Below the pieces are notes generated by a model. It made no database searches and was not told where the DNA came from. It saw only the letters and a list, made by a program, of their open reading frames with translations. A stretch of DNA of 64,000 nucleotides from contig JALDZX010000037.1 of the NCBI GenBank assembly GCA_022813865.1, forward strand, positions 1-64,000, read 5' to 3'. Both the position numbers and the translations under genes were made by a program. Of this stretch, positions 1,428-48,099 are shown piece by piece. Source of the stretch: Xylographa opegraphella (lineage: Eukaryota). Positions within the stretch are counted from its first letter, which is position 1, and each line of letters begins with the position of its first letter.

Positions 1428-2788
1428 TCAAAAGATGGACAGTTCGTCACAGGCTTCGTTTCCATACACCAGACTCTCACCCTCCAAACTTCCGGCCAAA
1501 GTGTTTCCGAGGGGTGTTTGAAATGTATGCTCTGGAGTAGTTTCCTCCTCATCCTTCGCGCTTTCACTTTCCCAAATCTCGATCTCCGCAGAAGATTCTT
1601 CTAGGCTCACAACTGGGCATACCACGGGAGTAGTGACGTCGGCTTTCTGGGTCACATCAATCTTAGCGGGGAAACCCTTCCATCCATCTTGAGAGCTTGG
1701 CATGCTAGCAGGCTCAGAAGAAGCAGCCACAGTGAGACTCTTATCGGTTAGACACTCGTTGGGCTTCTCGGTCTTATCATCAGTTGTCTCTGCGGGAACG
1801 ATAATGTAAGATGACACATCGCATCCATCAGCGTAGAAGTCGGCAGCGTCGAGGTCTCCAAGTGGTGTACGCGGCTCGTCAGTCATCACATCTTGTCGGA
1901 AACCTGATCGTGTTGCGACAACCATTGATGGATAGTCGGTAGGTGGAATATTTTCCTTTCCCCGATCATCATTTGCAGCACGACGACTTTCATCGTCAGA
2001 AATATCAACAGTTTGAAACGAAAATGACATAACGTTTCCAGTTTCCTCTTCCGGAGTATCTTCATGGATATCGAACATCCAGCCATTGGGGATAGATTCC
2101 TCAAGAGTAGGAACAGTGATGGCTGCTACAGGTTCCGCTTTGTACGATGAAACGGTGCCTGATAAGGCAGCATCAATAGAGAAAGGCATGCCATTGGCCA
2201 GACCAAAGGTCGGAGGATCAACCCTTGTGAAGGGTGATGACGATACCCTGCGGCGAGAAAGGATGCCAATACGTTTACTCTTGGGGGAACGACCAGCTGT
2301 GGCTGGGGCCGATGATGGTGTAGCAGCCTTGCGTGTTGAAGGACGGACAGCATCGAGGCGCTTTGGAGTGATGATGGGTCGTGCTAGAGCGGTAGGTGCA
2401 TCATATGTACTTTTCAAGACAAAATGAGAAACCTTGGCTGGCTTGATGGGATTGCCGTAAATATTCTTGGCTTTCTTCGAGGACGATTTGAGGTTCATGG
2501 GATCAATGTTCTCGGAGTCGACATCGTCGAAAGAGGGTGAGTATCGACGCTTGACTGGGGAAGCGAGAACTATAGGTGTAGCTACGAACGCGTTAATTAA
2601 CGTGTTAATCAAGCAAGAGATGGCTGACAGTATTGAAAAGGGAATTGTCGTCGTGAACTGTGCGCGTCAAGGATTTTATACATACCATTTTGACGATTCT
2701 TAACATTCGTGAGGTTGCGAAGTCTCGGTCCATCGAGACATGCGAAAGGCTGTCTTGCAGGAGACTGATACTGTGCGACAATGGCCAT
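1428..2788 (-). CDS. Disordered fungal protein with ABBA, KEN and D-box degrons (Acm1-like candidate)
   Basis: ATG at 2788 (MAIVAQYQSPARQPF). A phase-1 intron 2685-2582 (GTATGT...TAG) joins it in frame to the 394-aa ORF. Motifs FDIHED, GKENIPP and RTPLGDL, and many SP/TP sites. Confidence 0.8.
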
Positions 2789-3611
2789 TGCTAGCTCAAA
2801 AGCCAAAGGGCTTGGATGCTACTGGAGGTGGTGATGGTACGCCGAACTGGTGGTCTTGTTTGGAAGGAAACAAAGATGAAGATAAAAAAAAAAATTTGCA
2901 CACAGTCTGCTAGGTCAAGACTTAGTACTGAATTACACGACTAGCACAGTGAATGTCGGTGTGTTAATGAGAAAAAGGTGTTGAAGCTCTTCATGATGGC
3001 AGAGCCTGAGAAATTAGGACCATAGGTGATAAGTGGGGAACCCAACAGTGTATATCCTCCCTTTCTCCGCCGAGCAGACAAGAATTGGGCACTAGACCTT
3101 ACCTAGACACACTTCGTCGAGGAGCAATCAGAGGGCAAGAAACACGTCGGAGCAGCGCGCTGCTGAATCAACACTAATGCAGTCACGGCACCTTGCTTTG
3201 CAGCGCGACCCAGACGTGTCTGTGGGAGCGAGGCTCTCAGGCGCCGAGGCGCCAGTCGGAGATAGGGATAGCGTAGCAGTACGATGACGGCAAATGTGCT
3301 ACGCCGAAGCAGGAGCAAGGAAGAGTGCTTGAATGCGAAGGACGAGAGAGAGTGAGGATTGGTTGCTTGAGAAGGAAGACTTTCAGACTGTGGCGTTTGT
3401 TGGAGACGTTTTGTTTGGTGGGAAGCGAACGAGTTCGGCTCGGTTGATACGCGCTACGGGAGAAGTCTTGGCAAACACGACCCAGGCGCGAAATAGCAGC
3501 GCTAGACCAAGTTGATGTTAGTCTGGCACACTCACTACGGTGTCAGACCAAATCTGTGTCATTGGCATTCATTACTGTACAACCACTGCTTGTGCACGTT
3601 TCTGCTGCCGC

Positions 3612-3686
3612 TGCCTCAGGTTACCGTTCGTTGAGTATTGTGCCTCAGGTTGCCGTTCATTTGGTGTGCTGCCTCAGGTTACCGTT
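3612..3686. repeat. Tandem repeat, 29-bp period, 3 copies of tgcctcaggtt(a/g)ccgtt
   Basis: Copies start at 3612, 3641 and 3670. Confidence 0.9.
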
Positions 3687-5029
3687 GTTTCCAATAATCT
3701 GCATATCAACCTTACAGCGTGGGAACACTCCCAGTGCTCTCTTTCACAAGCCTCTGCTACGAATAGACGATTGTGCATATGCAGCCCCTCGTCCTCTCAT
3801 ATTATACTCACATGTCGATCACGCGTTCTTGCACGTACATGTGGAAAGCGACTGGCTCATGATAGGAGCCCTGGGGGGGATCGTCCGGACTATTGTGTAT
3901 GATTTCTCTCTTGTTTGAGATCATCTTCGACGTTGTCACCAATGTCCCACTATTCGACTGGTCATTCCACCTGATGTATGTTCCCACAGGCAGACGGACC
4001 GACTTTCGAACAAGTGATAAGCCCTCGACTTCCTCCCTAGACCACGGCTTCCTTATATCCCAACTGCCGGTCAAGTTTATCCCCTGTTTCGAAGCGTTTC
4101 ATTCCTTCGTATCAAGTCCGATTAATGATGCCGGCTACTGAAACCATTGTTCAGTACCATCAGAATCTTACTCTTCGCTGGGTACTTGTGTATGTTTCGA
4201 AGCCATTGGATGCGCTGACAGGCTAACCCAAGCACTGCGTGAAGACTTGAGCTTAGAGATGGAGAATGTTCAGCGGATCAGGCAATTGCTGTTTCATTGA
4301 AAAGATCCCTGCCCAGCATGACTCTCATGGGTTGTGTGGTGGAAGGATGGCTTGGTCCATCATTATTCTCTGCTTGTTAGCCTACGCGCTATTGGCTTGT
4401 TGCCTGGGACGTCAGGACTCGGTGCTGCAGACTTATATTGACTCGACAGGCAGCATATACATTGTGACGGCAAGTATCTTCGGGTCTTCCATGCTGTGAG
4501 CCTGTGGGTGCGTCTGTGGGTGCATCGCCAACGCACGTAGGCGAGGGCACTTCGCGTACGAAGATCTAGTGTAGCTACGTATAAGATTAACGGATTAAAG
4601 ACGAGGCATCGTTCACCCAGTTTCGAGGTGCAAATCCCCAAACAATCAGCTTCCACTTCCGAGCATATTTCCCCGGAGACTGATGGAAGCGTTCCCGGGA
4701 GGATGTGATTGCTCCGGTATGTCACGCACAAGGCGCCGCTGTCGGTATCATCTACGAGGCAAACGGCTTCGGAGACAAAAGTCACAGTAAGACAAAACAT
4801 GATCTATGGGAGCACGTCGGATATGGGAGAAATTTTTGTTTGCAGAACGCGGAGCTATAGCTCACGCTTGGCCTATGTTTCTGTCTCTTGCCCGACACTA
4901 AAACTATCCAGTCTTCGGGACCAGCTATTGGAATTGACAGTGAAACTTTTTTGACGACTCTCGCAGATAACTGAGACACTGGTATATAGATAAAAATATA
5001 TATACAAGAACATCATACGGTCAACCGGT

Positions 5030-6877
5030 CTATATGTATTTATATGGATTCATAATGCCGTTCTGCAAGCAATGTGAGCGTCTCGACCTAACGGGTAACG
5101 TCATACATAATACGACTGGAATGGAACGTACCGGATCGTAAAGATTCTTGATCTGCTTCATCAACCTGATCATGGTCTCGCTCCGGCTGTACCCAATATA
5201 CGGCTTCTTCGCGACCCCCAGACCATGCTCTGCACTGATACTTCCATGACGCTTCTGAATCCACTCGTAGATGAAGGGCTCCAGCGTTTTTTCAACGTTC
5301 TTGTCGAAGCTGCGCGTGACGATATTGAGATGCAGATTCGAATCGCCCATGTGCCCGTATCCTACGACACCCACCACGGGGTGACTGTCAGTATCCCCGA
5401 CCAAGCCCGCTTTCGTCAATCGCTCACGGGTGTCCTCGACCAGCGAATACATTTCGGCAATGGGGATCGAAACATCGTATTTGTAGACCCCGCCGAAGTG
5501 CCCCAGACTCTCAGCAATACCTTCACGCCATCCCCAGAGTGCTTGCATTTGAGTCTCGTCCTGTGCGAGAACACCATCGACGACAATTTCCTCACCCATG
5601 ACGTGCTCCAAGAATGCTTCCAACTTTTGGCTGTCGTGGTCGGAATTGGAGCCACTGGTTTCTATGAGACAGTAGAACGGATATTTGCCTTCCAGCGGAC
5701 GCTTATTCTTCGTCGCAGTATGCACAAGATCCTGGCTCTCGCCATCCATCAGCTCGAAGGCGGAGAGGATCTCAGAGAGCTTGCCCTTGGCTTCCCGAAA
5801 TGCTTGTTGGACCTTCTCGAAGCTCTCAAGACCGAAAAAGGCAACGTTCATAGCTTTGGAACGTTGAGGGCAGTGAATGGAGACACCAGTTATAATGCCT
5901 ATGGTCCCTTCACCTCCGATGAAGAGCTGCTTGATATCATAGCCCGTATTGTTCTTCCTTAGTGTTGTCAAGTCATCGACGATGGTTCCATCCGGTAAAA
6001 CGGCTTCTATTCCAAGCACATTACCGTGCATGCTACCATAACGCAGCAAGCGAAGTCCGCCAGCATTGGTAGCAACATTGCCCCCTATGTGACATGAACC
6101 CTTTGCGCCCAAATCCAAGGGGAATATGTGACTCCGTTCTGCTAGATATTTATCGGCGACCTCGAGTATGACACCGGCATCGACTACCAGAGAGCCAGAA
6201 ACCTCATCAAACGACCGTATCTGGTTGAGTCTGGAGAGGCTGATCACAATCTCGTCGAAAACAGGCACAGATCCTCCGACGAGGCCAGAATTACCACCTT
6301 GTGGCACCACAGCCAGCATGTTATCATTGCAGTATTTCAATACCTTGCTGACCTCTTCTGTCGAACCAGGCTTCACAACGAGTTTTGTATGCCCCTTATA
6401 CTTGCGCATCCAATCAGTATTGAAGGCCTCCAGATCGTCTGTGGCATCATTCGATACGCCATCGATGATAGCTGATCCAGTTCCAACGATTTTCTTCAGA
6501 GAATTTACGTGGTCAATAGTGATCTACACAACATTAGAAGGGGATTCAGTCATGTATTGGCAGCGAATTTCTACCGGCGAAAATCTATCATCCCTCTTGA
6601 TATCAAGATACCTGTGCAGTAGACATCAGCACAGTGAGGGCGTTCACAAGAGCTGTTGAATAGCGCACGATTCGGAAGTGAATTTAATGTGATGGTGAGA
6701 GCTCGCAGAACCTTGAACGCCCCCATCAGCATCTGGTTGGAGGGGCTCCGTAGATGCGGTACTCCAACGAATCTGTGTTGTGCACTTGGAGAATGAAAGA
6801 TACTCCGGACAAATACATGGCTTTGCCAATGGTCTAAGCTGGCGGCAAGCACCTAACAGTCGCGACCGCATCGCCAT
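5030..6877 (-). CDS. DLD2: Mitochondrial FAD-linked D-lactate/D-2-hydroxyglutarate dehydrogenase
   Basis: [46 protein letters not shown] and C-terminal NGIMNPYK. Arg-rich N-terminal presequence. Three introns, the last at 5131-5063. Confidence 0.93.
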
Positions 6878-7337: not shown

Positions 7338-11363
<4,026 letters not shown>

Positions 11364-17046: not shown

Positions 17047-18547
17047 GAGGTCAGGAGTATAAACGACTCCGCAGGTGTTCGTAAATGAGTTTTCGGTTTT
17101 GTTAGGGGGATACACCGATGAAGACACCGAAGACGGCAGCACACTAGCTCCAAGGCAAAGTGATCTATTTACAGTACAATACTGATGAATTGGGATCAAG
17201 AGCTGTTACTGTAAATTATGTGCCGCTCAGATTCCATCATCCGGGCTTCACAACGGGCCACGGCCTCCACCTCTAGATGCTGATTGTGCATCGTTGTGAG
17301 GTTTTCGAGCCAAGCGAATCATTTGGAGTCCGATCTCTGTTCCAAGCCTTTGCAGTAGTAGCATTCCAGTGATTCATGCTGGCGATTATGCATAACTCCT
17401 GCAAGAATAGTCTTGGAGCTGTCGAGCGTCGAAAGCATGAGAACATTCCGGCTCACCTGCTCACTCTCTTCTGAAAGGGCATTGTCTCAGTGCATGCGTC
17501 TTTCTCGTGATGCCACGCAGATTGATATTCATAGCTACGGGAAAGGTGGCAGCCTTAACGACACTTCGTCCCAGTCTCTCTATGGCAACAGGCCCGAACA
17601 AACAAGATTGGCTGGGTATTCCTAGCAGGGTGTCTGCCGACAAGCAGACTCAAGGGGACCACAAGTGGCAACTGACATCAAGTCCAAGAATGCCACGCAT
17701 AGCAAAGTATAGCCACTGTCGTATGTGATACGGAAGTTCTATCAAAGCTTGTATTGCATGCAAGTCTTGAGTCGTGCATCTCTCAATGGAGTTGAGAGAG
17801 AGCCGCTCCACGAAGAAGTCATTCCCATCGCTCTGCGAGACACATTTGTCATTTATTTCTGCTAGGTGGCGACGCTGCAACCCGCTCCAGAATGAACTTT
17901 TATGTACCTCCTCTACAGTCGAGATCCACACTGAAGGCATTGATTTTGCTTCACATTTGGGTTGGAATCACCTTGTCTTCAATGAAGGGTGAATTCCTGC
18001 GTGCAGATATACATGAGATAGTGCAAAGTGCGGCACATACCCGCTGGTCTCTCTTGCATACTTGCATACTTGCTGTTTGCTCTTGCAATTTAGCCGTTAC
18101 TGTCTATCATAGAGGCTTCTGCCATGAACGTCCTTCTCTAATCTTGATCATCAAAAACTACTCTACAGCCGCATGCCTCTCGCTTCGTGTAACCACTAAG
18201 CCGTATTCGGCTGCTCTAGACCGTATAGGTTAGGTCCTCGGTAAGGTATCTATTACGTGACGATTATATTTGACCATCGCGGAAAGCTTCGCCAAGAACT
18301 GGAACTCAACAATGCGGGCCACAGGCGCGTCTTTCCCAGCACCACATCATACAGCTGGACAACTCCGGCCTTTTGGCCTTGAGCGATGTTTGCGGTTCGC
18401 ATATCGCTTGCGAAGAGTCCTGGGTGCGTACAGTGGGGTATATACTTTGGGTTTGGCTTGCCTTTGTTGAAATAATGATTCGTTTCTTTCATGTCCCATC
18501 TATGCCTTCAATCATCCTCGTATCACGGTGTTCCGCTCTCGTACACG

Positions 18548-21500
18548 ATGCCGCTCCTCTTTTCCCGGCTGTGTAATTTACTGTCCGAGCTTGAAAACCT
18601 ACGTACCCGCCAGCGGCCTCTACCTCCGAATGTTCTCGAAGAGAAGTCCAAACGAAGCATCATCAAATGGTTCAATGATCATCGAACTCTGATTGATGCC
18701 GATGATACTGATGGCGTGGCCCTTCTCTCCGCTCTTCTTCCCGCAAGGAGATCTGACAGAGTTTACGGCCTACAGGCCGCTTCACTGACTAAGGTTCTCG
18801 GACGATGCCTCGGTCTGGTCGGAACGGAGAGACTGCGGGAGCTCGAGAGGTGGAAAGACCCGAACAAAAGCGACCTAGGTGCTGGTGTAGAGAAAGTCCT
18901 AACAGACACCCCAAATCCCGTTCAAGATCCGGTCACAATCGAGCAAATCGATCATGCCCTTGATAGAGTTGCAGCACGGAACCGTTTCTCCGGGCCAGAA
19001 ATATGGGCGAAGAAAGAGGATCGTAATGGAGCTAAAGTTGATGATATACTTAGATATACATATTTTAGGTTGAGGCCAAATGAAGCCAAGTGGTTCACCC
19101 GGATGCTGCTCAAAGATTACGGCGCTGCTGTTCTTCCGGAGGGTCTGGTCTTTGGGTGCTTTCATCGTCTTCTGCCGGCTATATTGAAGGTTCATGACAA
19201 CTTTCAGTCTGCAGTGGCTCTTCTAAGGAGCCCGCCCCTGAGCAATTCGATGATGACACGGAAGACTTTGTCTTCAGCGGGGGCAAGAAACCAACACGAT
19301 ATTGTCGCAAACGTTCTATCACCAAGGTGCGGTGTCAAAGTGGGACGGCCGTTGTTTCTCAAGGCGTGGAGCATCAAGTACGCTCTCCAGCTTGCCCAGG
19401 GTAGGAGAATGAGCTTGGAACGGAAGTACGATGGTGAGTACTGCCAGATCCACGTTGACCTAGCAAAACCTGGAAATGAGATCCAAATCTTCTCCAAAAG
19501 CCGCAAGGATTCCACCTGGGACAGACGTGATCTACATGCGACCATTCGTGAGAGTCTACGTATAGGTGAGGATGACTGCAAGGTGAAGCAGAAATGCATC
19601 CTAGAGGGAGAGTTCCTCGTATGGAGTACAAAGGAGTCTAAGATCCTTCCATTCCACAAGATTAGGAAACATGTTGCTAGATCGGGCACTTACCTAGGTA
19701 CAGCCAAAGACTCACAGTAAGTCCGTCGATAGTCATGCAAACTATTCTTTACCCTATATGAAATGACATACATCAGGCCTCACTACTGGGAGCAATTGAT
19801 GATTGTCTTCTTTGACGTACTATTGATAGATGAGGACCCCGTGCTCCACCAGCCACTTCGGCGCCGACGAGAGAAACTTGCGAACATCGTCACTGAAAAG
19901 CAAGGAAGTGCGGTCCTAGCCCAGTACGAAGAGATAAATTTCTCCAGCTACAACGCGGCCGAACGTTTGACGGAATCTCTCGCGAGTGCTTTCGCAAGAC
20001 GGTGGGAAGGCTGTGTTTTGAAGCCCGTCGACGAGCCTTATGTGAACTTTCTACCTGAGTCAAGGGGTGACTACCGGTGCTGCTGGATTAAACTCAAGAA
20101 GGACTACATTCCCGGGCTCGGTGATACGGCTGAATTTGCTGTTGTTGGCGCAGGCTACGATGCGAGTGAAGCAGCCAAGCTTGGCCTCACACATCTGCCG
20201 TGGACATTCTTTCACATCGGGGCTTTGATCAATAAGACCGAAGTACTGCAATCAGGCGCGAAGCCAAAATTCGCGGTGTTGGATAGCTTCAATACGTCAA
20301 TCCCGAAGAAGGATATGGAGCGTCTATGCCGTCTTGGAAAATTCTATGCTGAACCTGTAAAGCCTCCGGTCAAACATGAGTTGCTCGCCGATGTCTACCG
20401 GCATCCGAACCTACACAAAATGGATGTTGTGTTTACTCGCGCTTTCGTGTTTGAGGTCAAAGGTGGCGGGTTTGATAAGCCCCCAGACTGCGATCACTTC
20501 TTGCTTCGCTTTCCGCGGCTGGTCAAAATCCACTGGGACCGACACTTCGAGGATACCGTCAGTTTCGATGAGCTGCAAGATCTGGCGAGGAAAGCCATGC
20601 GGGAGCCAAACGACGACCTTTGGACTGAAATCGCCGCTTGGGAGAAAAGGGTGAGGGATACTGACAGAGGTCATCGGAGACGAGCATCTAGAGACGAAGA
20701 TGATGGAGAACTCGAAAGTGGGTTCCAGGCGGAATGCATGCCCTCTTCACAAACCTTAGTTGACTCGCCTATAAATATGAAGACAGCAAAAGAGGCCACG
20801 TTCGTCCGGATGGACACGGGCGAGATGTCGCCTTCAGAGCAACGTCTTGATACTGGCGAGGTGATCTCACGGCCTCCTTCCCGGAGTCCTACTTCGAGCA
20901 CTGAAAGTGGCAGCTCACTTGCAGTGCATAATTTTCCTTCACTGCCGCAGCTGCCTGCATCAAACAAAATCTCACCGCCCCAAGGAAGAAAAAGATCAAG
21001 GCCTCAGAATGAAGAGCTCGACCTGAGTCCCCCACCGCTAAAGGCTATCCGCAAAGGTAATCATGTTATTTCCATCGAGTCTTCACCCCCCCCAATAACC
21101 CCAAGTCCTGTTGTTCGACGTCCTTTTTTGAAAGATGTCGACAACCACGCTTTCCCGTCGCCCAAGTCTCGCGGTGATCCTCGCAAAGCATTGTCAAAAT
21201 TACATGAACCCTCCTCCTCCACCCTTGTGCGAAAGGCTCCGCCACGCCTACTCGTCAAGTCGAGCCCGAAGCCCGTTCTGGAGTCCAGCTCCGCCGTCTA
21301 CAATACAACAGAATCAGAACACACGTCCTCGGAAGATTCATCACCAATCTCAAGACCGTCTCCTATCCTTCCTGTGCGTCCCAAGTTCGCCCAACCTCTC
21401 ACAGTCCTTTCGCCGTGCATTGCCCAGATGCCATACCTAACCGAGGACCTCCTCCCAGTCCACAACGCGACCGTGGTGCCAATTTCCGATCTATCACCCC

Positions 21501-21772
21501 GCGCGAAAACCGGCGATGCCACCGCCAAAATAGATGCAGTGGCTCTGGTCGAGTCATACCGGAGCGACGCCACGGCACTCTTCCTCAAGGACCTTCTGCG
21601 TGTTATGGGTCAGAATCTGCAGGAGGCCGAGATTTGGGACTGGAGGATCGTGGAGCAGACGGAAGAGGTGGAAGGAAGACCAGGAAGGTGGTTCGTGGGG
21701 TGGATCCGGAGGGATGCGTTGGGAGAATGGGTGCTCGTGTGGAAGAATGGAGATGTGTCTAAATCGCGCTGA
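18548..21772 (+). CDS. ATP-dependent DNA ligase (Lig4-like paralogue, no obvious tandem BRCT)
   Basis: Motif I ERKYDGEY, III EGEFLV, IIIa FFDVLL, IV EGCVLK, V WIKLKKDY, VI LRFPR. N-terminal DNA-binding domain. Intron 19717-19776. Confidence 0.9.
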
Positions 21773-29894: not shown

Positions 29895-31540
29895 CGCGAG
29901 CTTCGGTGTAGCCTCGGGTGGAGGTCTATGTGGAGCGGATAGGTGGGTTGGGGTGGGAAGTGGAGAGGTGGGCAGCGGTGGCAGGTCGTCGATTCCTTCC
30001 TCGACCAAAAGCTCCGGCGGGGGCTCTTTCTTGGACGCTTGCTGGCGATTATGCTGTCCGATCAAATCGAAGAAACTGCTTCTCGTTCGCAATCGAGGTC
30101 GAAGACCAATCATAAAACAGGCATGCGGGTTTGAAGATGGGCGTTAGAGTTGGCGAGCTAGCATATAGCTCAACTTGTGGCTTCTTTTCTGTCTTGTTCG
30201 CTCTCATCATCATCGCCGTGCTGCGGCTAGTGTTTTCGACTAGGATCAGCACGAGCACGAGAAGCTTTCACTCATCCCTTCCTACAGATTACCCCCGCCG
30301 TCTCAAGTAAATACATCTTAGTCTATGCGGCTGTTGCTCTCTATCTACATCTCGGTGGCCGACCTTGAAATACCTTGTACGGTGTGTGAGTAGCTGGTCA
30401 GCCTATCAGGTGGCCCCCTGAGCGGCGGCTTAATGGAGACGGAAACACCACTTGGCCAGAGTCAAGGGCGCGCGGTGTTTCTGGATAGTGCTACTGCTGT
30501 GACTCTTGCCCATACGTGAACGTAGGACTCCCCAGTCACAGACAGCATTATGATCGAGCGACTATCGTGTTCGACATGGCCGGTGCTGACGGACAGGCTT
30601 GGGACGTTGGTCTGGAGGGGTCTGAACGGGTGATAGGCCCGCCATTTCCCCCGAAGTTCATGTATCTAGCTCTATTACGAACCTGGATAGAGACTTAGAT
30701 ACCCTCATCCATCCCAACTGAAGCCATTCTACAGCTGCGTCTTTCTTGTGACCGTTGGTGTCCGTCCGTAGTTTCCAGATCCGTCGTACAACTACTTCAC
30801 GATCAGGACCTCTCCCTTTACACATCTCAGTCGGTTCCTCATTCCGGTACCTCGAGCTGAATCAGAGGCTTCGAGCTAGGCAGCTCACAGCTGCGAGCTC
30901 TGGACTTTGCTCCAGTTCTGGTGTCCGATCACATCTCAAACTCAGCTTCGACTCCAAGCGTGGCCGCCGTGGACCGGACGGTGCAAGCAGAAACCGAAAA
31001 GCGTGGTATCCGTTACTGGTGGACTGACCACCGTTCCAGACGGGTGTCTCCTGAAGCCTCAAGGACCTCCACGGCTTGTTGCTGAGTACTCTCAGCACTG
31101 GCTCTGAAGTATTTCCAGCGGTGAAACCGCAGCTGTTCGTCCTGGCAGACGAAGCCCCCCCACCTCTATATACCCCAATCACTTCCGACGACCCAGCCAC
31201 TACGAATAATCCAACAAGCTCTACATCCACCTTCACCTCAGCCCAAACTTTACCTTCTATAGATTCGATAAACGGTCCGGTACCATCATCGAGCATCCAG
31301 GACCAGCACTTGAATCTGACACCAACACAAGCCCGACGACCTGTACCAACGACCAACCGCCTTCAAGCTCGTCGAAGGCGTCGGAGATCTTCCTCAGAGC
31401 CTACCGAAGGCGAAAACCTTGTCGACGCGCATCGAGTTTCGGTCATAACGCAGCCAAGTAGTGCTGCAAGCGCCAACGCCCAGGAGCCTGGTGCTGGTTC
31501 TCGGAGAGAGACACCGTCTTCGCCAAAGCGGCCCCGCCTT

Positions 31541-33674
31541 ATGAGTAAAGATATGCGCAACGATTCCGAAAATTCTTCCAGTTCTAATGGCATACGTTAC
31601 CATACGAACGGCTCTTTCCTGCCCACGCTCCAGAAGGCTGCAACATCCACTACATCCAACGGCTTTGCGGCGCCAACCAACGGCGATGCGACTTCCTATA
31701 CCAATGGCTCGACACCGGTGACCGCAAGAGCAAGATCGTTGACCTATTTTGGACACGATCGGGAAGAGGTTGCTCGGCTACTCATACAAGGGTTGAACGA
31801 TCTGGGGTATAGCGAGACCGCGTACAAACTCGTTCAAGAAAGTGGATACGAGTTGGAGAGTCCCTCGGTGGCGGCATTCCGTCACGCCATTCTGAACGGA
31901 GAGTGGTCGGAGGCGGAGGCATTACTATTCGGCTCACATCGGTCGAATGATGGGGGTGGCGTCAGCATCAGCAATGTCAATGGCAGCAGACACGAAGGCC
32001 TGGTCTTGGTAGAACGAGCAGATAAGGACGTTTTGAGATTTCGTTTACGCAGACAAAAGTACCTCGAGCTACTAGAAGACCGGGATCACGGCGGTGCACT
32101 AATGGTCCTTCGCCAAGAATTGACCCCGTTACACCAAGACGTTGGACAGCTGCACATATTATCGGGGTGGGTGGCAGTCGATCACACTTCCTGGTATACG
32201 CTTGCTGATTGATCGTAGTCTTATGGTCTGCCAATCGGCCGACGAGCTGAGATCACAAGCCTCGTGGGATGGTGCTCATGGATCGTCGAGGAATTTGCTT
32301 CTGTCGGATTTATCCAGTATGGGACCACCAATGCAACTTCTTTCGTAGCCAATGCTTACATAATTTGACAGAATCAATCTCTTCGTCCGTAATGTTACCA
32401 GATCATCGTTTGGCGGTCTTGCTCGATCAAGTGAAACAAACTCAAGTCTCAAATTGTCTGTATCACAATCCAACCACATCGCCATCCCTGTTTTCGGACC
32501 ATGTCTGTGATCGAAGTCAGTTTCCTCTGCAAACACACGTCGTTCTTGTTCAACAGCATGAAATCTGGTTTGTGCAATTTTCTCATGATGGCCGGAGGTT
32601 GGCTACTGGTGGGGAGGCGACGACTGTGACGATTTATGATACTATAGACTTCCAGATACGTCACACTCTGGTCGAACATACGAAAGCGGTCGCCTACGCC
32701 GCGTGGAGCCCTGATGATACGAAGATCGTCACTTGTTCTCACGACCTCACCGCCAAAGTTTGGGACACTTCGGTCAGTGCGATGAACGGTCTTGGTATTA
32801 TTTGCTGACGAGTCGTACAGTCTGGCCGATGTATTTCCTCTATTGTGCACGGAGATGAGCCTGTCACGTCTGCCGCTTGGGCGCCAAATGGTCAGACTTT
32901 TGTTACGGGATCACTGGATAAACAATCATCCTTGCACATCTGGAATCTCAATGGCGAGATCATCCATACTTGGTCGGATAGCACACGGGTCCAAGATCTA
33001 GCTTTATCTCCCGATGGGAAGCGCCTTGTCATCATTTCTCCCGAAAGAGAGATAACGGTGTATGATTTTACCACCTGGAACGAGGAATACAGCCTGCGGC
33101 ACAAATCCAAATTGACTTGTGTCAGAATCAGTAGGGATTCAAAGTATATGTTGATCAACATGGTGGATAACGAGCTGCAACTGATCGACATTGCCTCTGC
33201 TGAAAGAGTGCGAAGGTTCCAAGGTCAGCAGCAAGGAGAATATATTATCCGGGGCTCGTTTGGGGGTGCCGATGAGAATCTGATCATAAGTGGCAGTGAA
33301 GGTAATGGAAGATCGCCTATCATGGGTTATTGTCTGAACTGACACTTTGCTGAAGATGGTCGAATCTACATATGGCATCGAGAGAACGGCACCCTGATTG
33401 AGACACTCGAAGGCCATCCAGGTGGTTGCGCGAATGCAGTAGCATGGAACCCGGCCGACTCATGCATGTTTGCATCCGGTGGAGACGACAAGAAGGTCAA
33501 AATGTGTGTTTTGACTTCTCATCACCGTTGCACCCAAAAAAGTTATGTAACTGACCTTCCGCTAGATGGTCGAAGGAGGCCACGAACGAGACCCGGATGC
33601 GACATAGTTCGACTGGGTCCTATCGCACGCATGCGGGCCGGACCTTTGACGGGTCATCCGGCATTCTCGTATGA
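31541..33674 (+). CDS. GID7: LisH/CTLH + WD40 protein, GID/CTLH E3 ligase subunit Gid7/WDR26 (true start may be further upstream)
   Basis: LisH REEVARLLIQGLNDLGY, CTLH FRHAILNGEW, RRQKYLELLE, MLPDHRLAVLL; WD repeats FSHDG, WSPDD and FASGGDD. Confidence 0.9.
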
Positions 33675-34526
33675 TTTACCGCGTTGCCTAACGCTCCAAC
33701 AAGCATCACTCGCATTGCATTGTACCAAGAAAGCGAACCCGGACGGTCTCCAAGCGGAACGACAGCGTCAGATTGCAATTCACTTGGTTAGGAAGGCGTT
33801 TGGTGGTGCTGGATGACTTCTTTGGCGTCAACATGGATGCATCAATTCCCCCTTCCGGCACATTGCATCGACCACGAGGCGGACACGACTGCTACGAGTA
33901 TGGAACTCGGCGTTGACCTACGGTGCTGCCGTTGTGCTGTTGTGTGGCATTCTCTATCTGGCAATTCATTTATATATCTTGCTCCCATCTTGCATCTGGA
34001 CAACGCAGTCGTTTGACGAGTCGCCAAGGCGCATGGTCCGTCTCCATGCTACATACCGTCAGTTGTGTCTTGCCTTTTACCTTTCTAGCCCTCTCCCATG
34101 GCATGGCACGCTCGACCCCACACGCATGACACTCGATATTACTCCCCAACCTCCCCTTCCCCTCCATCCTCCCCCTCTCTAACCACACCATGTCCGCCCC
34201 AATCCCAGCATAAGCCCTACAGCCACTCGCCACTCACCACCCGCCATACGATCTCCCCAAAGGGAGACATCCCCGTGAACAACCAATCAACCAACCAGCC
34301 AGCCGGCTCACCACCATCCCCGCGGACCATATCCGAGACCCGGAACACAAGCCTACATCCTCCCTCCCCATAACAGACTCGGATAAGGATAAAGAACCCT
34401 AGAGGCGCGAGAGTGGGAGACGTAGTGCTGAGCTGAGCGTTTTTTACGGGGGGAAGGGGGGGGAAGCGATGAGGGGATGTGAGTTGGGATTATGCTCGAG
34501 ATTTGGTCCCGTATGTGGTGGATTCC

Positions 34527-34896: not shown

Positions 34897-36824
34897 CTAG
34901 ACCTCCTCGTCGCTGATCTCCATCATGCTCTTCTCGCCCACATCCTCCACCGCACGCACAACCCTCTCCCCCCCCCTCCCCACCGCCCTCCTCCTCTCCA
35001 CCGCCCGTAGGACCCCCTCCTTGCGCCTCTCAACCACGCCCTCCACCGCCTCATCCCCGGCGCCAAAGCTCTCTCCGAGGCTCAAGCCACCCATGCCGTC
35101 GCCGCGACTATTCTCCTCCAGCGCCCTGCCAAGCAGATCCGTGGCGACCGGATCCTGCGCACTGATGCCCAGCGCCTCGTGCAGCGCCACCACAGCCTCC
35201 CACGCGCGGCCCATCTCCAGCAGCACGAGGCCCTTGGCCGTGAAGACGCCGGCGTCCTTGCCGCCCTGGCGGAGCACCTCCTCGAACTCCGCGAGCGCGG
35301 CGCCCCACTGGCTCTGCCGGCGGTACGCGTGCCCGAGGTTGGCGCGCGTGGCGATCCAGGCCTTGGGGTCGCTGTCGATGTCGCGGGCGATGGTGAGCGC
35401 GCGAGTGAACATGGTGATGGCGGGGCCGAGGTGGTCGAGGTGGTAGAAGACGACGCCGAGCTCGTTGAGGAGGAGGGGGTCCGTCTGGCACAGTTGCTGG
35501 GCGGCGTTGAGGTACTCCTGCGCGAGCGTCATGTTGTTGAGCTGAAGGTTCTGCATGCCGAGGAAGAGCTGCGGGAGGTGGGTGCCTTGGAAGAGGCGGG
35601 CGGCCGTGCTGTAAGCGGATATAGCCTGGTCGTGCTCACCTTCGGCGGCAAAGGTATGGGCAAAGCCGATCCAGGCGGGGCCAAAGTGCGGATCCATCAT
35701 TGAGGCTTTGGAGAAGAAGCGCCGTGCTTCTGCGATCTTGGAGATGCTGAGGTAGTAAACGCCAACGGCAAGCCAGGTGGCCGGCTCTTCGGGATGATGG
35801 TCGGCAAGGCGATGCGAGAGGAGAAAGAGAGTGTTGGTTTGAGAGAGCTCGTGCAGGCAAGCGAGGTGGAGAGGGTATATGGCAAAGTTGTACTCGTCCG
35901 TATCGAGAATGGAGGTGGTGATAGCGAGGGCTTCCTTGAAGCGGCACTGCGTAAACAGGAGGTCGGCTTTCGCAAGGAGGAGGTCTGGATTCTGAGCGAG
36001 GCGGTAATGAGTCGAGAGGGTTTCGGTAGCGTTGGTGAACTCGGCTGGGTTCTTGTACTTGGAAAGACGAGTGGTGTAGAGCATCTTGACAAATTGTGCG
36101 GCTTCTTGTGATGTCGAGAGATCCTCGGCGGAGATGGAGTCGAAGTCGAGCGACTCGAGAAACGCCCACTCCTCGTCCGGTGACATGAGAGAATTCTTCA
36201 TCAGCTGGTCGAACGCTTCGAAGCACTGCACGTCTATCCGGACAGCATCTTTGTAGCATTCCTTTGCACGATCGAAAGCGTTTTGCTTCGCGAAGCATAT
36301 GCCACGCAAATAGCACATGGCAGCCTCGAACTTGACGTCCGAGACATCTTCTCTGTCCCTCTCCTCGCTCACTTCTATCCTGTCCGGCCTCGCTGCAAGC
36401 TTAATCGTTTTGCCAGCACCATTGCGCAGATTCCCATTCGAGTGCTGCAACTTTCGTCGCGCCTTACTTGACGAAGAGATCAAATGAGTCGGATCCTTGT
36501 CTCCCAAAATACCCAGGGCCTCGTCGTATTTGTATTGCTTGATGTTGCAATGAGCAGCAAGATAGCGGCACGAAGGACTGTGATCAACAAGATTGTGTTT
36601 GGTGAGAAAGCTCTGGGCGCGAGTGTAGTTGCCGGTGGAGAAATGGACTTGTGCAAGCCAAAAGGCGTCTTTCGGGTCATCTGGTAACTATTAATGTCCT
36701 GTATTCACCAGGTGAGCAGCTCCTCACTTGTAAGAGCGAGCAGCTTGTCACCGATATAGATTGCTGACTCGTACTGATGTTTGTTTATGGCATCCTGCCG
36801 CCAGTCCTTCAATAGCTTTTCCAT
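34897..36824 (-). CDS. CDC16: Anaphase-promoting complex TPR subunit Apc6/Cdc16/Cut9
   Basis: MEKLLKDWRQDAINKHQY, ARRFFSKA, FGPAWIGFAHTFAAEGEHDQAISAYSTAARLF, DPLLLNELGV. One intron near 36727-36683. Confidence 0.93.
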
Positions 36825-44025: not shown

Positions 44026-47000
44026 CTATCCCACCCATCTCCGCGCACTCTGGAAGATCCTGCCCCACGGCCCAACATCTCCCCATTCTTTAACCTTCCC
44101 TTCCGGAATATAACTCCCAATCCCACTCATCACAGTACGTTCTGGATGCGGCATAAGAGCGAGTACCCGTCCATTCGGGGTGCGTACACCTGTGATACCA
44201 CCTGGGCTCCCGTTCGGATTCGCTGGATACTTTTCTGTGGGCTGTAGATAATTGTCGATGTATCTGGCAGAGACTAAGTCCTGCTCCAATAGCATCGTTG
44301 GTGGGGAAGATTTGGGGAATGTTGCTTTTCCTTCGCCGTGGGCTGTGACGATCGGGAGTTTCGAGCCGGCCATTCCGTGGAGGAAGACCGATGGGGTAGA
44401 ATGCGTATCGAGGATTTCAACCATGCACACTCGAGCTTCGTATTGCTCACTAATATTCCGCTCGAATGTCGGCCATCCTTCCGCGCCCGGTATGAGCTCC
44501 TTCAAGCGGCTCAGGAATTGACATCCATTACACACGCCGAGAGTGAAGGTGTTCTTCCTGGCAAAGAACTGCTTGAACTCCTCTCTAGTGTTTGCATGCA
44601 GGAGAACAGACTTCGCCCAACCTTGGCCCGCACCAAGCACATCACCATACGAGAAGCCTCCACACGCGGCAAGTCCAACGAAAGATCTGAGGGATACTCG
44701 GCCAGAAATCAAATCTGTCATGTGAACGTCTATTGCCGAAAAGCCAGCACTCATGAAAGCGAAAGCCATTTCCGATTGGCCATTGACCCCTTGTTCCCGA
44801 AGGATGGCGACACGAGGCTTTGATGACAATGATAAAGAGGATAGAATAGTACTAGCGAAAGGTAGTATGTGCGCAGAGGTATCGTAGGTGAGGTTATACG
44901 AGAGTCCTGGATCCGATGAATCAAGAATTGAATCGTATTCAGTGCCCGCACAGATCGGGTTATCTCGAAGCTTCTGCATGTGGTAAGACGTTGATGACCA
45001 TCGTTGTTGTAGCGAAGCACGTGAAGCCTGGTAGACCACATTCGTACCCATACGGATAGTCAGATCCTGCTTACTGGCAGGCGTAACACATCCAATCTTG
45101 GTAATGAGTCCATGAGGTGGTCCGCAAGTAGCAAAAGCACGGTGAAATTCTATTTCGTCCCTCTTGCGTACTTGGAACACTGCTCCAAGCTCTTCATTGA
45201 ACAGTGTGTCTATGAGATCCCTGTTTTGACTTGATCGGCAAAGATTATCGAGCATAATCTCCAAGCCACATCTTCCTGCAAACATCATCTCCGCGAGGGT
45301 GGTGAATAGACCGCCATCAGAGCGATCATGGTATGCAAGGACTATGCCAGACTCCTGAAGCTGCTCTCTAGCATCAAAGAAGTCTTTAAGCAATTGAACG
45401 CTGTGAAGATCGGGCGCTACATCGCCTATTTGACCAAATACTTGTGCTAGCGCAGAGCCTCCCAGCGCTTTTCGGCCCTCAGCAAGGTCTACGAACAATA
45501 GTATAGTCTCCCCTATGTCTTCTAGCCGACGTAATGTGGGTGTCCATGTTCGGTTGTAGTCTGCGACAGGAGCGAAAGCTGATATGACCAACGAAAGCGG
45601 CGCGGTAACTTCTTTCGTTTCTTTCAATTCTGGCTCCGTCCATTTCATTTTCATAGACATGGAATCTTTTCCCACCGGTATACTGATACCAAGTTTTGGG
45701 CACAAGTCCATACCGATTGCCTCGACAGCCTCAAATAAAGCAGCGCCCTCGCCTGGATGATTACTTGCGGCCATCCAATTTGCTGATAACGTGATTCTCT
45801 CAAGTCCATCACGAAGGTCTGCGGCAGAAATATTCATCAGTGCCTCTGCCACAGCCATACGAGATGACGCGGCCGGCGATATCAGTGCAAGTGTCGGCTT
45901 CTCGCCCATAGACATCGCCTCGCCCGTCTTCAGGCCAGAAGTAAGAGACGTGGCCGTGACAGAGACGTCTGCGACAGGCACCTGCCACGGCCCCACCATC
46001 TGGTCCCTCGCCGTCAGTCCACCAACCGTTCGATCGCCAATAGTGATGAGGAAGGATTTGGATCCTACAGCTGGCAAAGCGAGCACACGCTGGACTGCTT
46101 CCTCGAAAAGGCCACCAATTGGTGCTTCAGGGAGATACAACGTAAGGCTGCTATCGAATGGTGGCAAGTCTGGCTCTCGAGACTCCACTATCCTTGTCGT
46201 TTTCGGAGGCTTGCCAAATAGCACCGACATGGGAAGGTCTATTGGTGTTGGATGCTCCTTGGAATCTCGATCCATCACCACAAGTCGTTTCTCGCCTTCT
46301 TCTTCATCTTTAGTTCTCCCGACAATGGAATAGCCACAGCGCTCTCGATCGGCTATCTGTTTGAAGACATTAAGACTCTCTTGCCCTACTGCTAAAACAT
46401 ACCTCTCCTGCGCCTCACAGCACCAGATTTGTAAGGGACTCATGCTCTTATCAGCATTGTCAATTTCTCGCAATTCGAATGTAGCTCCCAGTCCAGCATC
46501 ATGGACCAGCTCTGGCAAGGCATTTGAGAGGCCACCTGCTCCCACATCATGGATGAATTTGATAGGGTTCTCTTGACCCATAGCCACACATGCGTTAATG
46601 ACTTCCTGCGCCCGCCGCTGTACTTCAGCGTTGCCTCTTTGCACACTAGCGAAGTCTAAATCCACCGAGCCTTCTCCAGATGTGACACTCGAGGCCGCCC
46701 CCCCTCCAAGGCCGATCAACATGGCCGGCCCGCCAAGCACAATAACATATGCGCCTGGCCCAACTATATCAGGATCTTTGAGCGCAAACTGAGGCCGTAC
46801 AGTTCCAAGACCACCTGCGATCATGATGGGTTTGTGATATCCGCGAAGCTCTGATCGGCCTCCCCCAAGTGGAACTTTGCTAAGAAAGGTTCGGAAGTAT
46901 CCCGTAGTACATGGCCGTCCAAATTCATTATTGAAAGCTGCACTGCCTATTGGTGCTTCAAGCATTATATCCAGGCTGCTGGCAATGTGATTGGGCTTTC

Positions 47001-48099
47001 CCACATCGAGTTCCCATGGCTGGCGGAACCCTGGTATCAATAGGTCGGAGACACTAAAGCCACAGAGTCCCGATTTTGGTCTAGATCCTCTACCGACAGC
47101 CCCCTCGTCTCTGATTTCACCTCCGGACCCAGTGGCAGCTCCAGGGAACGGCGACACTGCTGTCGGATGATTGTGCGTCTCGACCTTTGTAAGGTACTGT
47201 ACCTGTTCTGTAGTCTGCGTCCACTCACCAGTGGATCTATTCGGAGCCAGGAAGCTGCCTCTTTGACCATGAAGAACGGCCGCATTGTCACTGTAAGCGC
47301 TCACAACGAACCTTGGATTCTTCTCCTGCGTATTACGGATCATATTGAAAAGGCTCCTTGCCTTCTTTTGTCCATCAATAGTCCAACTTGCATTAAACTG
47401 CTTATGTCTGCAGTGCTCCGAATTGACCTGAGCAAACATGAAAAGCTCTACGTCAAAGGGTGCTCTTGCAAGAAGTCCTTTGGAATCGTAGGCCTGTAGA
47501 AGATATTCGATCTCCGATGCATCCAGTGCCAGTCCGAGGGTCTTGTTGGCTTTCTCAAGGACAACCCGAGGATCACTGCCTTCCTTGTGTATCTCAATCT
47601 GCCGAGCAGGCAGAGGTTGATGCTCTCCAAACATAGCCTCGAGGTCCGGCGGCTGCGAAGCGAGTATCTCGGTCATTCGATCGTGAAGGTCATTCGCAAA
47701 GGGAATGTCTGTGACATCACATGACTTGTCCGTAACTATTCTGAAGATAACGCCACGCTCGATTCGCTTCACGATCTTGCTGAAACCACAGACATCGGCT
47801 ATACTTGTAGCCTTTGAACTCCATGGTGATATTGTCCCGATCCTTGGCGAGACGTGATACTCATACACCTTGTGGCTGGAGTCGGCCTCCCTTGTAGTAC
47901 GAGCGCCATTATGAGGATCATCATTTTTCAATAATTGTTCCAATGCAGCCGTATCAGTCTCCGTAGGGGACCGCGTAAAAGCGACATAATGAACGTAGCG
48001 TGCACTAACATCCAATACACCAATCTTCACCCCGAGTAATTGTTTGCGAAAGTCGGAGAGTGCAGAAGCTCCTTCATAAGTAACAAATTGGAGAGCCAT
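44026..48099 (-). CDS. ADE6: Phosphoribosylformylglycinamidine synthase (large PurL), intronless
   Basis: FAQVNSEHCRH, KVETHNHPT, GAATGSGGEIRDE, HDVGAGG, GVCNGCQ, MPHPER. Likely start MALQF at 48099; an in-frame ATG also exists at 48216. Confidence 0.97.
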   Translation of the reverse strand: MALQFVTYEGASALSDFRKQLLGVKIGVLDVSARYVHYVAFTRSPTETDTAALEQLLKNDDPHNGARTTREADSSHKVYEYHVSPRIGTISPWSSKATSIADVCGFSKIVKRIERGVIFRIVTDKSCDVTDIPFANDLHDRMTEILASQPPDLEAMFGEHQPLPARQIEIHKEGSDPRVVLEKANKTLGLALDASEIEYLLQAYDSKGLLARAPFDVELFMFAQVNSEHCRHKQFNASWTIDGQKKARSLFNMIRNTQEKNPRFVVSAYSDNAAVLHGQRGSFLAPNRSTGEWTQTTEQVQYLTKVETHNHPTAVSPFPGAATGSGGEIRDEGAVGRGSRPKSGLCGFSVSDLLIPGFRQPWELDVGKPNHIASSLDIMLEAPIGSAAFNNEFGRPCTTGYFRTFLSKVPLGGGRSELRGYHKPIMIAGGLGTVRPQFALKDPDIVGPGAYVIVLGGPAMLIGLGGGAASSVTSGEGSVDLDFASVQRGNAEVQRRAQEVINACVAMGQENPIKFIHDVGAGGLSNALPELVHDAGLGATFELREIDNADKSMSPLQIWCCEAQERYVLAVGQESLNVFKQIADRERCGYSIVGRTKDEEEGEKRLVVMDRDSKEHPTPIDLPMSVLFGKPPKTTRIVESREPDLPPFDSSLTLYLPEAPIGGLFEEAVQRVLALPAVGSKSFLITIGDRTVGGLTARDQMVGPWQVPVADVSVTATSLTSGLKTGEAMSMGEKPTLALISPAASSRMAVAEALMNISAADLRDGLERITLSANWMAASNHPGEGAALFEAVEAIGMDLCPKLGISIPVGKDSMSMKMKWTEPELKETKEVTAPLSLVISAFAPVADYNRTWTPTLRRLEDIGETILLFVDLAEGRKALGGSALAQVFGQIGDVAPDLHSVQLLKDFFDAREQLQESGIVLAYHDRSDGGLFTTLAEMMFAGRCGLEIMLDNLCRSSQNRDLIDTLFNEELGAVFQVRKRDEIEFHRAFATCGPPHGLITKIGCVTPASKQDLTIRMGTNVVYQASRASLQQRWSSTSYHMQKLRDNPICAGTEYDSILDSSDPGLSYNLTYDTSAHILPFASTILSSLSLSSKPRVAILREQGVNGQSEMAFAFMSAGFSAIDVHMTDLISGRVSLRSFVGLAACGGFSYGDVLGAGQGWAKSVLLHANTREEFKQFFARKNTFTLGVCNGCQFLSRLKELIPGAEGWPTFERNISEQYEARVCMVEILDTHSTPSVFLHGMAGSKLPIVTAHGEGKATFPKSSPPTMLLEQDLVSARYIDNYLQPTEKYPANPNGSPGGITGVRTPNGRVLALMPHPERTVMSGIGSYIPEGKVKEWGDVGPWGRIFQSARRWVG

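Follow-up and report, generated by a model that had tools for sequence, protein, structure and literature searches.

A Pezizomycotina family of disordered proteins with a conserved ABBA-KEN-D-box cassette: a candidate Acm1-like modulator of Cdh1

A two-exon gene and its family

The first 64,000 nt of contig JALDZX010000037.1 from the lichen-forming fungus Xylographa opegraphella (Lecanoromycetes; assembly GCA_022813865.1; this whole stretch is called the window below), carry a minus-strand gene whose product is a candidate ligand of the co-activators that serve the APC/C (anaphase-promoting complex/cyclosome). As a whole, the coding region spans 1428..2788 and consists of two exons, starting with an ATG at 2788: exon 1 (2788..2686, minus) contributes 34 codons, a phase-1 intron of 104 nt with the borders GTATGT...TAG follows at 2685..2582, and exon 2 (2581..1431) runs up to the stop codon at 1430..1428. 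The spliced product of 418 residues matches the NCBI hypothetical protein MMC26_005216 of X. opegraphella (P0003 in our protein set) at 100% identity, and in 8/8 orthologous environmental loci printed the phase-1 intron lies at the identical position, after the KNRQN codons.

A search with the exon-2 product returned 875 proteins at E ≤ 1e-3, and a profile of 25 members matched 616 clusters (50% identity), of which 327 had E < 1e-30. Named members come from the Sordariomycetes (Neurospora crassa NCU07771, Thermochaetoides/Chaetomium thermophilum CTHT_0050460, Chaetomium globosum CHGG_10777, Fusarium, Colletotrichum, Verticillium), the Eurotiomycetes (Uncinocarpus, Fonsecaea, Polytolypa), the Dothideomycetes (Cryomyces, Elasticomyces), the Leotiomycetes (Mollisia, Bisporella) and the Lecanoromycetes. 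Among the best 120-150 matches listed per search, no named member lies outside the Pezizomycotina. NCBI labels all members as hypothetical proteins, and in a protein atlas the family falls into clusters of its own, at scores of 0.95-0.96. UniRef gives many members (P0146, P0153, P0262 and others) the name "Thymidylate kinase"; because no Pfam family matched in any of the 25 proteins scanned, this identity was rejected and the name is unsupported, probably reflecting a propagated annotation error. The public gene model of C. globosum CHGG_10777 (P0402) is without exon 1 and without the ABBA segment found in its relatives, and is probably mis-predicted.

The Pfam scan covered the window protein, 20 members and four more that included forms of 577 and 662 residues, and it assigned no family to any of them; stray hits were confined to four families, in one member each, with a best E of 0.034. 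Structure prediction with AlphaFold2 from a 20-sequence cross-class alignment gave a mean predicted local distance difference test (pLDDT) score of 49, a predicted template modelling score of 0.20 and only four short helices, at residues 20-30, 170-175, 211-222 and 280-283, with the highest pLDDT at 211-220 (~83) and 271-300 (71-82). On this model the chain is essentially disordered, and the pieces that do show order fall on conserved blocks. An earlier sequence-only reading of the window had taken the protein to be domain-less, which agrees both with the Pfam result and with the AlphaFold2 model, where no globular domain appears. Across the family, the part of the protein that precedes the ABBA motif has a median net charge of +16 and the remainder one of −32. 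The [ST]P sites number eight per protein (median), and the Xylographa protein carries sites of the cyclin-dependent kinase (CDK) type at SPVK (residues 42-45), TPKR (106-109) and SPK (133-135).

The ABBA-KEN-D-box cassette and further conserved blocks

Conservation was counted in two sets, namely all 384 family proteins fetched, with fragments kept and the two pieces from the window excluded, and the 317 of these that start with Met and measure 340-480 residues, a filter that removed 67/384. The ABBA motif was searched as F.[ILV][FHY].[DE] within 20-70 residues upstream of the KEN box, and the destruction box (D-box) as R..L..[ILMV] within 10-80 residues downstream of it; invariance of the exon-1 blocks was assessed in the cross-class alignment of 20 sequences. 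In the larger set, KEN is present in 384/384 proteins, an upstream ABBA match in 379/384 and a downstream D-box match in 376/384, and 371/384 have all three in the order ABBA, KEN, D-box, the arrangement that the sequence-only reading had likened to that of Acm1. Among the 13 proteins without the full triad are a fragment of 199 residues and P0187, in which the aligned ABBA segment is abnormal. From ABBA to KEN the spacing is 35-48 residues, with modes at 39 and 44, and from KEN to the D-box it is 14-75 residues, mostly 31-36.

In the Xylographa protein the cassette opens with W202-x-FDIHED (2058..2081, minus; core F204-D209 at 2075..2058), a motif of the ABBA/A-motif type that lies within WMFDIHEDTPEEE (residues 202-214) and is followed by T210-P211. 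The consensus of the ABBA motif is given as Fx[ILV][FY]x[DE] in the part of the literature that we draw on here (PMC5717348). Among the 317 members, F204 is retained in 316, I206 in 312, W202 in 306 and E208 in 297; position 207 is H in 264 and Y in 49, and position 209 is D in 299 and E in 17. Of the 371 proteins that carry the full triad, 208 have FDIHED and 58 have FEIHED. The linker that follows (1989..2054, minus) comprises a predicted helix at residues 211-222, the block with a pLDDT of ~83, and the acidic VDISDDE block (226-232), whose family form is LDISxDE (D227 in 312, S229 in 316, D230 in 310 and E232 in 307 of 317).

The KEN box itself lies in GKENIPP (residues 242-248, 1941..1961, minus), in keeping with the downstream prolines described as typical for this box (PMC5717348), and the D-box RTPLGDL (272-278, 1871..1851, minus) fits the consensus RxxLx[D/E][hydrophobic] as given in the same source. 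Five residues of these two motifs, K243, E244, N245, P248 and R272, are each present in 317/317 members, which bears out the conservation that the sequence-only reading had asked for in Pezizomycotina orthologues. The D-box is also well conserved at L275 (312/317) and at position 278 (L in 192, M in 118), and directly behind it lies a strongly conserved extension, DFYADGCD at residues 282-289 in Xylographa and DFYAEGCD in the family form, in which G287 is kept in 302/317 (D-box and extension together 1818..1871, minus). Because they are conserved across the family, the protein motifs lie far beyond chance. As for the peptides on which the sequence-only reading was built, RQPFACL, WMFDIHEDTPEEE, GKENIPP, RTPLGDL, SPVK, TPKR and SPK are all found where it placed them, and its distance of about 29 residues between KEN and D-box is exactly that from K243 to R272. 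With its fixed spacing, the tripartite ABBA-KEN-D-box cassette of this family makes a clean natural example of its kind.

Two [ST]P sites adjoin or enter the cassette. T210-P211, right behind the ABBA motif (2058-2050, minus), has its T in 294/317 members, and T273-P274 lies within the D-box (1868-1863, minus), where an [ST]P at P2-P3 is found in 131/317. Both could possibly act as CDK switches on co-activator binding.

Conservation extends well beyond the cassette. Exon 1 encodes RQPFACL (residues 12-18, 2735..2755, minus), an RxPFxxL motif that resembles a D-box with Phe at P4 and whose R12, P14 and F15 are invariant in 20/20 cross-class sequences, and it ends with KNRQN (30-34, 2687..2701, minus), which overlaps the predicted helix 20-30 and keeps K30, N31, Q33 and N34 in 20/20. 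In the set of 317, R.P[FML]..[LIVM] and KN.QN are each found in 172, the members that do not have the former being mostly those without exon 1. Further downstream, DSENIDP (56-62, 2499..2519, minus) is an "xEN..P" motif whose E58, N59 and P62 are kept in 305 of 306 sequences with a residue at these positions, and D-x-E-N-x-D-P occurs in 304/317; by analogy with the NEN of Acm1 it is possibly another box of the KEN type. A basic block, AGRSPKSKRIGILSRRRVSSSPFTRVDPP (130-158, 2211..2297, minus), contains the S133-P134 site, a K/R cluster that is a probable nuclear localization signal, and R154-x-DPP, and is conserved at R132 (312/317), P134 (311), R154 (312), P157 (311) and P158 (311). It is followed by PFSIDAALSGT (167-177, 2154..2186, minus), family form PFSIDAALxGT, a short block with S169 in 316, A173 in 315 and L174 in 310 of 317 members that contains the helix 170-175 of the AlphaFold2 model. 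Near the C terminus, the acidic motif AEIEIWESESAK (366-377, 1554..1589, minus) has the family form [S/E]-[F/I]-E-[L/I]-W-E-S-x-S-A-K, with W371 in 291, E372 in 301 and S373 in 278 of 317, and reads SFELWES in 101 and EIEIWES in 29 of the 286 members with the motif.

Several further readings were considered and dropped. The docking patterns for protein phosphatase 1 (SILK/RVxF), PP2A-B56 (LxxIxE) and the PIP-box misfit the conserved residues of these other blocks, an Nrm1/Whi5-type repressor found no Pfam match, and a separase site in DDESRR (230-235), where ExxR fits the Xylographa protein, is unconserved in two family alignments.

Promoter words and gene neighborhood

The sequence-only reading had also listed words resembling the MluI cell-cycle box (MCB) and the Swi4/6 cell-cycle box (SCB), next to the cell-cycle transcription known for Acm1. 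The words are there, ACGCGT at 2588 and 3821 and CGCGAAA at 3487, the one at 2588 within the intron. Across the 64-kb window they occur only at chance frequency (ACGCGT 10 observed vs 11.9 expected, CGCGAAA 7 vs 7.9, ACGCG 84 vs 102), and MCB words from the window alone were therefore rejected as evidence. The upstream region (2789..3830, minus) additionally holds ACGCG at 3449. Since the promoter in the window gave no signal, we fetched orthologous loci from metagenome contigs, 80 in total, of which 72 had a plus-strand match to the N terminus and 53 at least 800 nt of upstream sequence; merging promoters that were ≥85% identical over ≥300 nt left 31 distinct ones, in which word counts at −800..−1 were compared with a first-order Markov expectation.

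In these 31 promoters ACGCG was observed 165 times against 56-57 expected, and ACGCGT 26 times against 6.3-6.4, a count reached in 0/300 simulations; the latter word is present in 23/31. When all 2080 6-mers were ranked, AACGCG (64 vs 14, z 13.4), GACGCG and TCGCGT came out on top, all three carrying ACGCG when both strands are read as equivalent, and ACGCGT was sixth. A downstream control region (+1500..+2300) showed no enrichment (ACGCG 28 vs 27.0 expected). Between +1 and +800 ACGCG reached 71 vs 48, partly owing to intron 1 and partly to codons for T-R-V-D. In yeasts MBF binds the MluI cell-cycle box, whose core is ACGCG, and enrichment of this word in the orthologous promoters suggests that the family is transcribed at G1/S. 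Cell-cycle transcription, for which the window alone gave no support, thus finds it in the comparison of orthologues.

Three further sequence features stand near the coding region. ACGCGT often lies within intron 1, ~100-200 nt after the ATG (loci L019, L017, L030, L023 and L026, and position 2588 of the window), and a second ACGCGT cluster at ~+500-560 of the orthologous loci derives from T-R-V/I-D codons. In the window, three tandem copies of a 29-nt unit, TGCCTCAGGTT[A/G]CCGTT..., occupy 3612-3698 (upstream region, minus), ~820-910 nt upstream of the start codon, and may represent a repeated transcription-factor site. Downstream of the stop codon, a 32-nt word (ACATAGACATACACCGAAGTCAGTCGATATGT-like) is present in three copies between 991 and 1196, at a spacing of 85-89 nt.

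Among the other genes of the window are those for a FAD-linked oxidase of the D-lactate dehydrogenase type (5030-6523, minus), a USP7-type ubiquitin hydrolase (7640-10305, minus), an ATP-dependent DNA ligase (18479-21772, plus), a WDR26/GID-type LisH-WD40 protein (31055-33816, plus) and FGAM synthase (44026-48306, minus), five neighbors without a functional link to the protein with the APC/C motifs. An APC/C subunit 3 gene (Cdc27/BimA type, with ANAPC3 domain and TPR repeats) lies at 34900-36687 on the minus strand, ~32 kb away, and we take this linkage to be coincidental.

Candidate functions and comparison with known APC/C ligands

Summed over all readings that make use of such docking, it is likely that the cassette docks on an APC/C co-activator. 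We picture a disordered protein of nuclear type, present throughout the Pezizomycotina, with a basic N-terminal and an acidic C-terminal half and an MCB-rich promoter of the MBF (G1/S) type, whose cassette would occupy a single WD40 propeller: the ABBA motif would sit in the groove between blades 2 and 3, the top face would hold the KEN box, and the D-box channel would take up the D-box, as in Acm1 on Cdh1. The protein would accumulate from G1/S onward and itself be destroyed later, possibly through its N-terminal RxPF..L and xEN motifs. Because docking of this kind would follow Acm1, we tentatively read the family as Acm1-like pseudosubstrate modulators of Cdh1, made from G1/S and removed later in the cycle; by this analogy it would be Cdh1, or else Cdc20, that is bound, and the effect would go beyond the protein's own degradation.

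Several observations weigh against an Acm1-like role. ABBA motifs combined with a KEN or D-box are also described for true substrates, cyclin A and Clb5 among them (PMC5717348), and because of this the cassette alone does not show inhibition. Lysines are found near the cassette (median 3 per family protein), the N-terminal D-box-like motif has Phe instead of Leu at P4, and a 14-3-3-like R..[ST].P, represented by RVSSSP in the Xylographa protein, occurs in only 91/287 members. Because the N-terminal motif, AGRSP..RRR..DPP, PFSIDAAL and WES are conserved equally well, other partners are implied, and perhaps the real effector function lies there. The promoter data have their own weak points: the window gene has only two ACGCG within 1.1 kb of its own promoter, which is chance level, and in the orthologous loci ACGCG is also about 2-fold enriched far upstream (76 vs 37 expected at −1600..−801), an excess that may stem from long promoters or from a neighboring gene. 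Lastly, the route to Acm1 by profile search, proposed in the sequence-only reading, revealed no homology: a profile of 20 members run against all PDB chain sequences had a best E of 0.76, to an unrelated chain, with no Acm1 or securin chain among the matches.

The strongest competing explanation, which we regard as a serious if not favored possibility, is that the protein is an ordinary high-priority APC/C substrate. Its motifs would then be genuine degrons that set the moment of its destruction, and its function would reside in the other blocks, for example in chromosome or replication biology. Cyclin A and Clb5 are degraded early with the help of ABBA motifs (as reported in PMC5717348), at least six further blocks of the family are as conserved as the degrons, the lysines in and around the cassette are what such a protein would offer, and transcription at G1/S followed by destruction through the APC/C is the usual pattern, with which the promoter data are consistent. 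On the other hand, the helix predicted behind the ABBA motif follows the inhibitory region of Acm1, as does the tightly fixed spacing, the strongly conserved DFYAEGCD extension would be unusual for a plain degron, and no partner was found for the other blocks. Even as only a substrate, the family would be a strongly conserved cell-cycle protein that has so far escaped annotation.

If the Acm1-like reading is carried further, it is tempting to speculate that the family supplies filamentous ascomycetes with the APC/C-Cdh1 pseudosubstrate inhibitor that they have been missing, corresponding in function to Acm1 and Emi1, expressed at G1/S under MBF and equipped with two co-activator-binding modules, although we consider this combined proposal less likely than not. 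The central ABBA-helix-KEN-D-box module would then lock Cdh1, and the N-terminal module of RxPF..L and xEN would let Cdc20 remove the protein. Were this true, the Acm1-type switch would be ancestral to the Ascomycota and no peculiarity of budding yeast. To our knowledge, no APC/C-Cdh1 inhibitor has been described in filamentous fungi; a literature search for KEN box and Cdh1 in Aspergillus nidulans listed no such protein, and NCU07771 is without mention in the searchable literature, supplementary tables lying outside that search. Found in apparently all Pezizomycotina classes sampled, the family might give a handle on how Cdh1 is switched off at G1/S in multinucleate fungi, and its orthologues in model species, N. 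crassa NCU07771 and C. thermophilum CTHT_0050460, make it a testable candidate as a regulator or a priority target of the APC/C.

The sequence-only reading had offered a securin-like protein as its alternative, and this fares poorly. The family would in that case be the securin of filamentous ascomycetes, destroyed at anaphase through KEN and D-box, with the C-terminal [S/D/E]-hydrophobic-E-x-W-E-S acting as a separase pseudosubstrate. [quoted passage not shown] The C-terminal motif partly fits the separase site (S/D/E)xExxR, with Glu in place of Arg, and resembles the human EIEKFFP as given in PMC6858450 and PMC10317155; P6 is S, D or E together with Glu at P4 in 161/286 members. The nearest named atlas cluster, at a score of 0.77, carries PF04856 Securin on 55% of its members, which is a lead only: the atlas tool rates this family assignment as probably wrong, and the match is a separate Ascomycota cluster of 307 residues, so that another securin-like family exists. 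[quoted passage not shown] Moreover, by the rule set out in PMC10317155/PMC6858450, which calls for (S/D/E)xExx[large hydrophobic], E-I-E-I-W-E fits at P6, P5 and P4 but has Glu at P1. An LPE-type [LV]P[ED] is found downstream in only 11/286 members, the Glu at P4 (E369) is kept in only 223/317, PF04856 is unmatched at E up to 10, and the family differs from the securins in its large conserved N-terminal half and its ABBA motif. The published C. globosum securin is XP_001225358.1 and the family member there is CHGG_10777, which would be different genes if RefSeq numbers follow the order of the locus tags. The supplements of PMC6690013, PMC6858450 and PMC11148194 contain no fungal securin or sororin sequences, and a literature search for securin with CTHT or Neurospora returned nothing relevant.

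It is less probable again that the motifs belong to interactions outside the APC/C and resemble degrons by coincidence. Short linear motifs are degenerate, and the binding of the cassette is read from sequence; against this, motifs of three independent classes follow one another as they do in Acm1, in order and in spacing, the residues that define them are kept in 317/317 members or nearly so, and the promoter is of a cell-cycle type. We hardly believe in a sororin-like cohesion protector or other cohesin regulator whose KEN box would direct its degradation by APC/C-Cdh1. In favor of it, sororin is basic, phosphorylated by CDK and equipped with a KEN box as well as a short C-terminal motif that is conserved, and an uncharacterized Pezizomycotina family (XP_001941430.1) has been proposed as a candidate. 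Against it, the K/R cluster expected before the Sororin domain contrasts with a median net charge of −6 in the 40 residues ahead of the C-terminal motif here, the F-x-x-V-D-x-Y pattern of Sor1 is absent and Pfam Sororin does not match (sororin features as given in the relevant part of PMC11148194).

How closely the family resembles Acm1 can be judged from the Acm1-Cdh1 complex (PDB 4BH6; He et al. 2013, PMC3690534). According to the sections of that study concerned with the central region of Acm1, its A motif (residues 61-70) lies between Cdh1 blades 2 and 3 with an alpha helix (~70-80) adjacent to it, its NEN (90-92) can occupy the KEN site of Cdh1, P103 is assigned to the KEN box with S102 as the adjacent CDK site, and DB3 lies at R119; E65 pairs with K333 of Cdh1 in a Cdh1-specific salt bridge, the N-terminal DB1 is specific for Cdc20, a 14-3-3 site is present at pT161, and the protein appears at G1/S (PMC3690534). 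On this description, ABBA motif, helix, KEN box and D-box follow each other in the same order in both, with F61, K98 and R119 of Acm1 standing against residues 204, 243 and 272 of the Xylographa protein, and from ABBA to KEN there are 37 residues in Acm1 vs 39-44 in the family. The predicted helix 211-222 follows the ABBA motif here as the Acm1 helix adjoins the A motif, and the Glu equivalent to E65 is present at P5 of the ABBA motif in 297/317 members. Expression at G1/S, suggested for the family by its promoters, would be another common trait. Both proteins are disordered, the family by prediction, and both have an extra xEN and CDK-type sites; the N-terminal motif here, D-box-like but with Phe at P4, is a candidate counterpart of DB1.

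The differences are equally plain. Acm1 has a length of 209 residues, of which the 418 of the Xylographa protein are twice as many. The family has additional blocks (PFSIDAAL, DFYAEGCD and the C-terminal WES), and a 14-3-3-type site is not a family-wide feature. From KEN to D-box there are mostly 31-36 residues in the family vs 21 in Acm1, where 15 residues lie between P103 and R119, and the xEN of the family is N-terminal, whereas the NEN of Acm1 lies between ABBA motif and KEN box (Acm1 positions from the same sections of PMC3690534). Of the other known ligands, Mes1 of Schizosaccharomyces pombe and OSD1/UVI4 of plants are likewise disordered, have KEN or GxEN and a D-box ~20 residues apart and act on co-activators; they are much shorter, belong to other lineages and, in the part of PMC3690534 that treats them, are reported without an ABBA motif. 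BubR1/Mad3, cyclin A and Clb5 likewise combine Fx[ILV][FY]x[DE] with KEN and/or a D-box on Cdc20 or Cdh1, as described in PMC5717348, but have TPR or cyclin domains where the family has no domain. Taken together, the best reading by analogy is that the family would, on paper, work like Acm1 without being a member of the Acm1 family.

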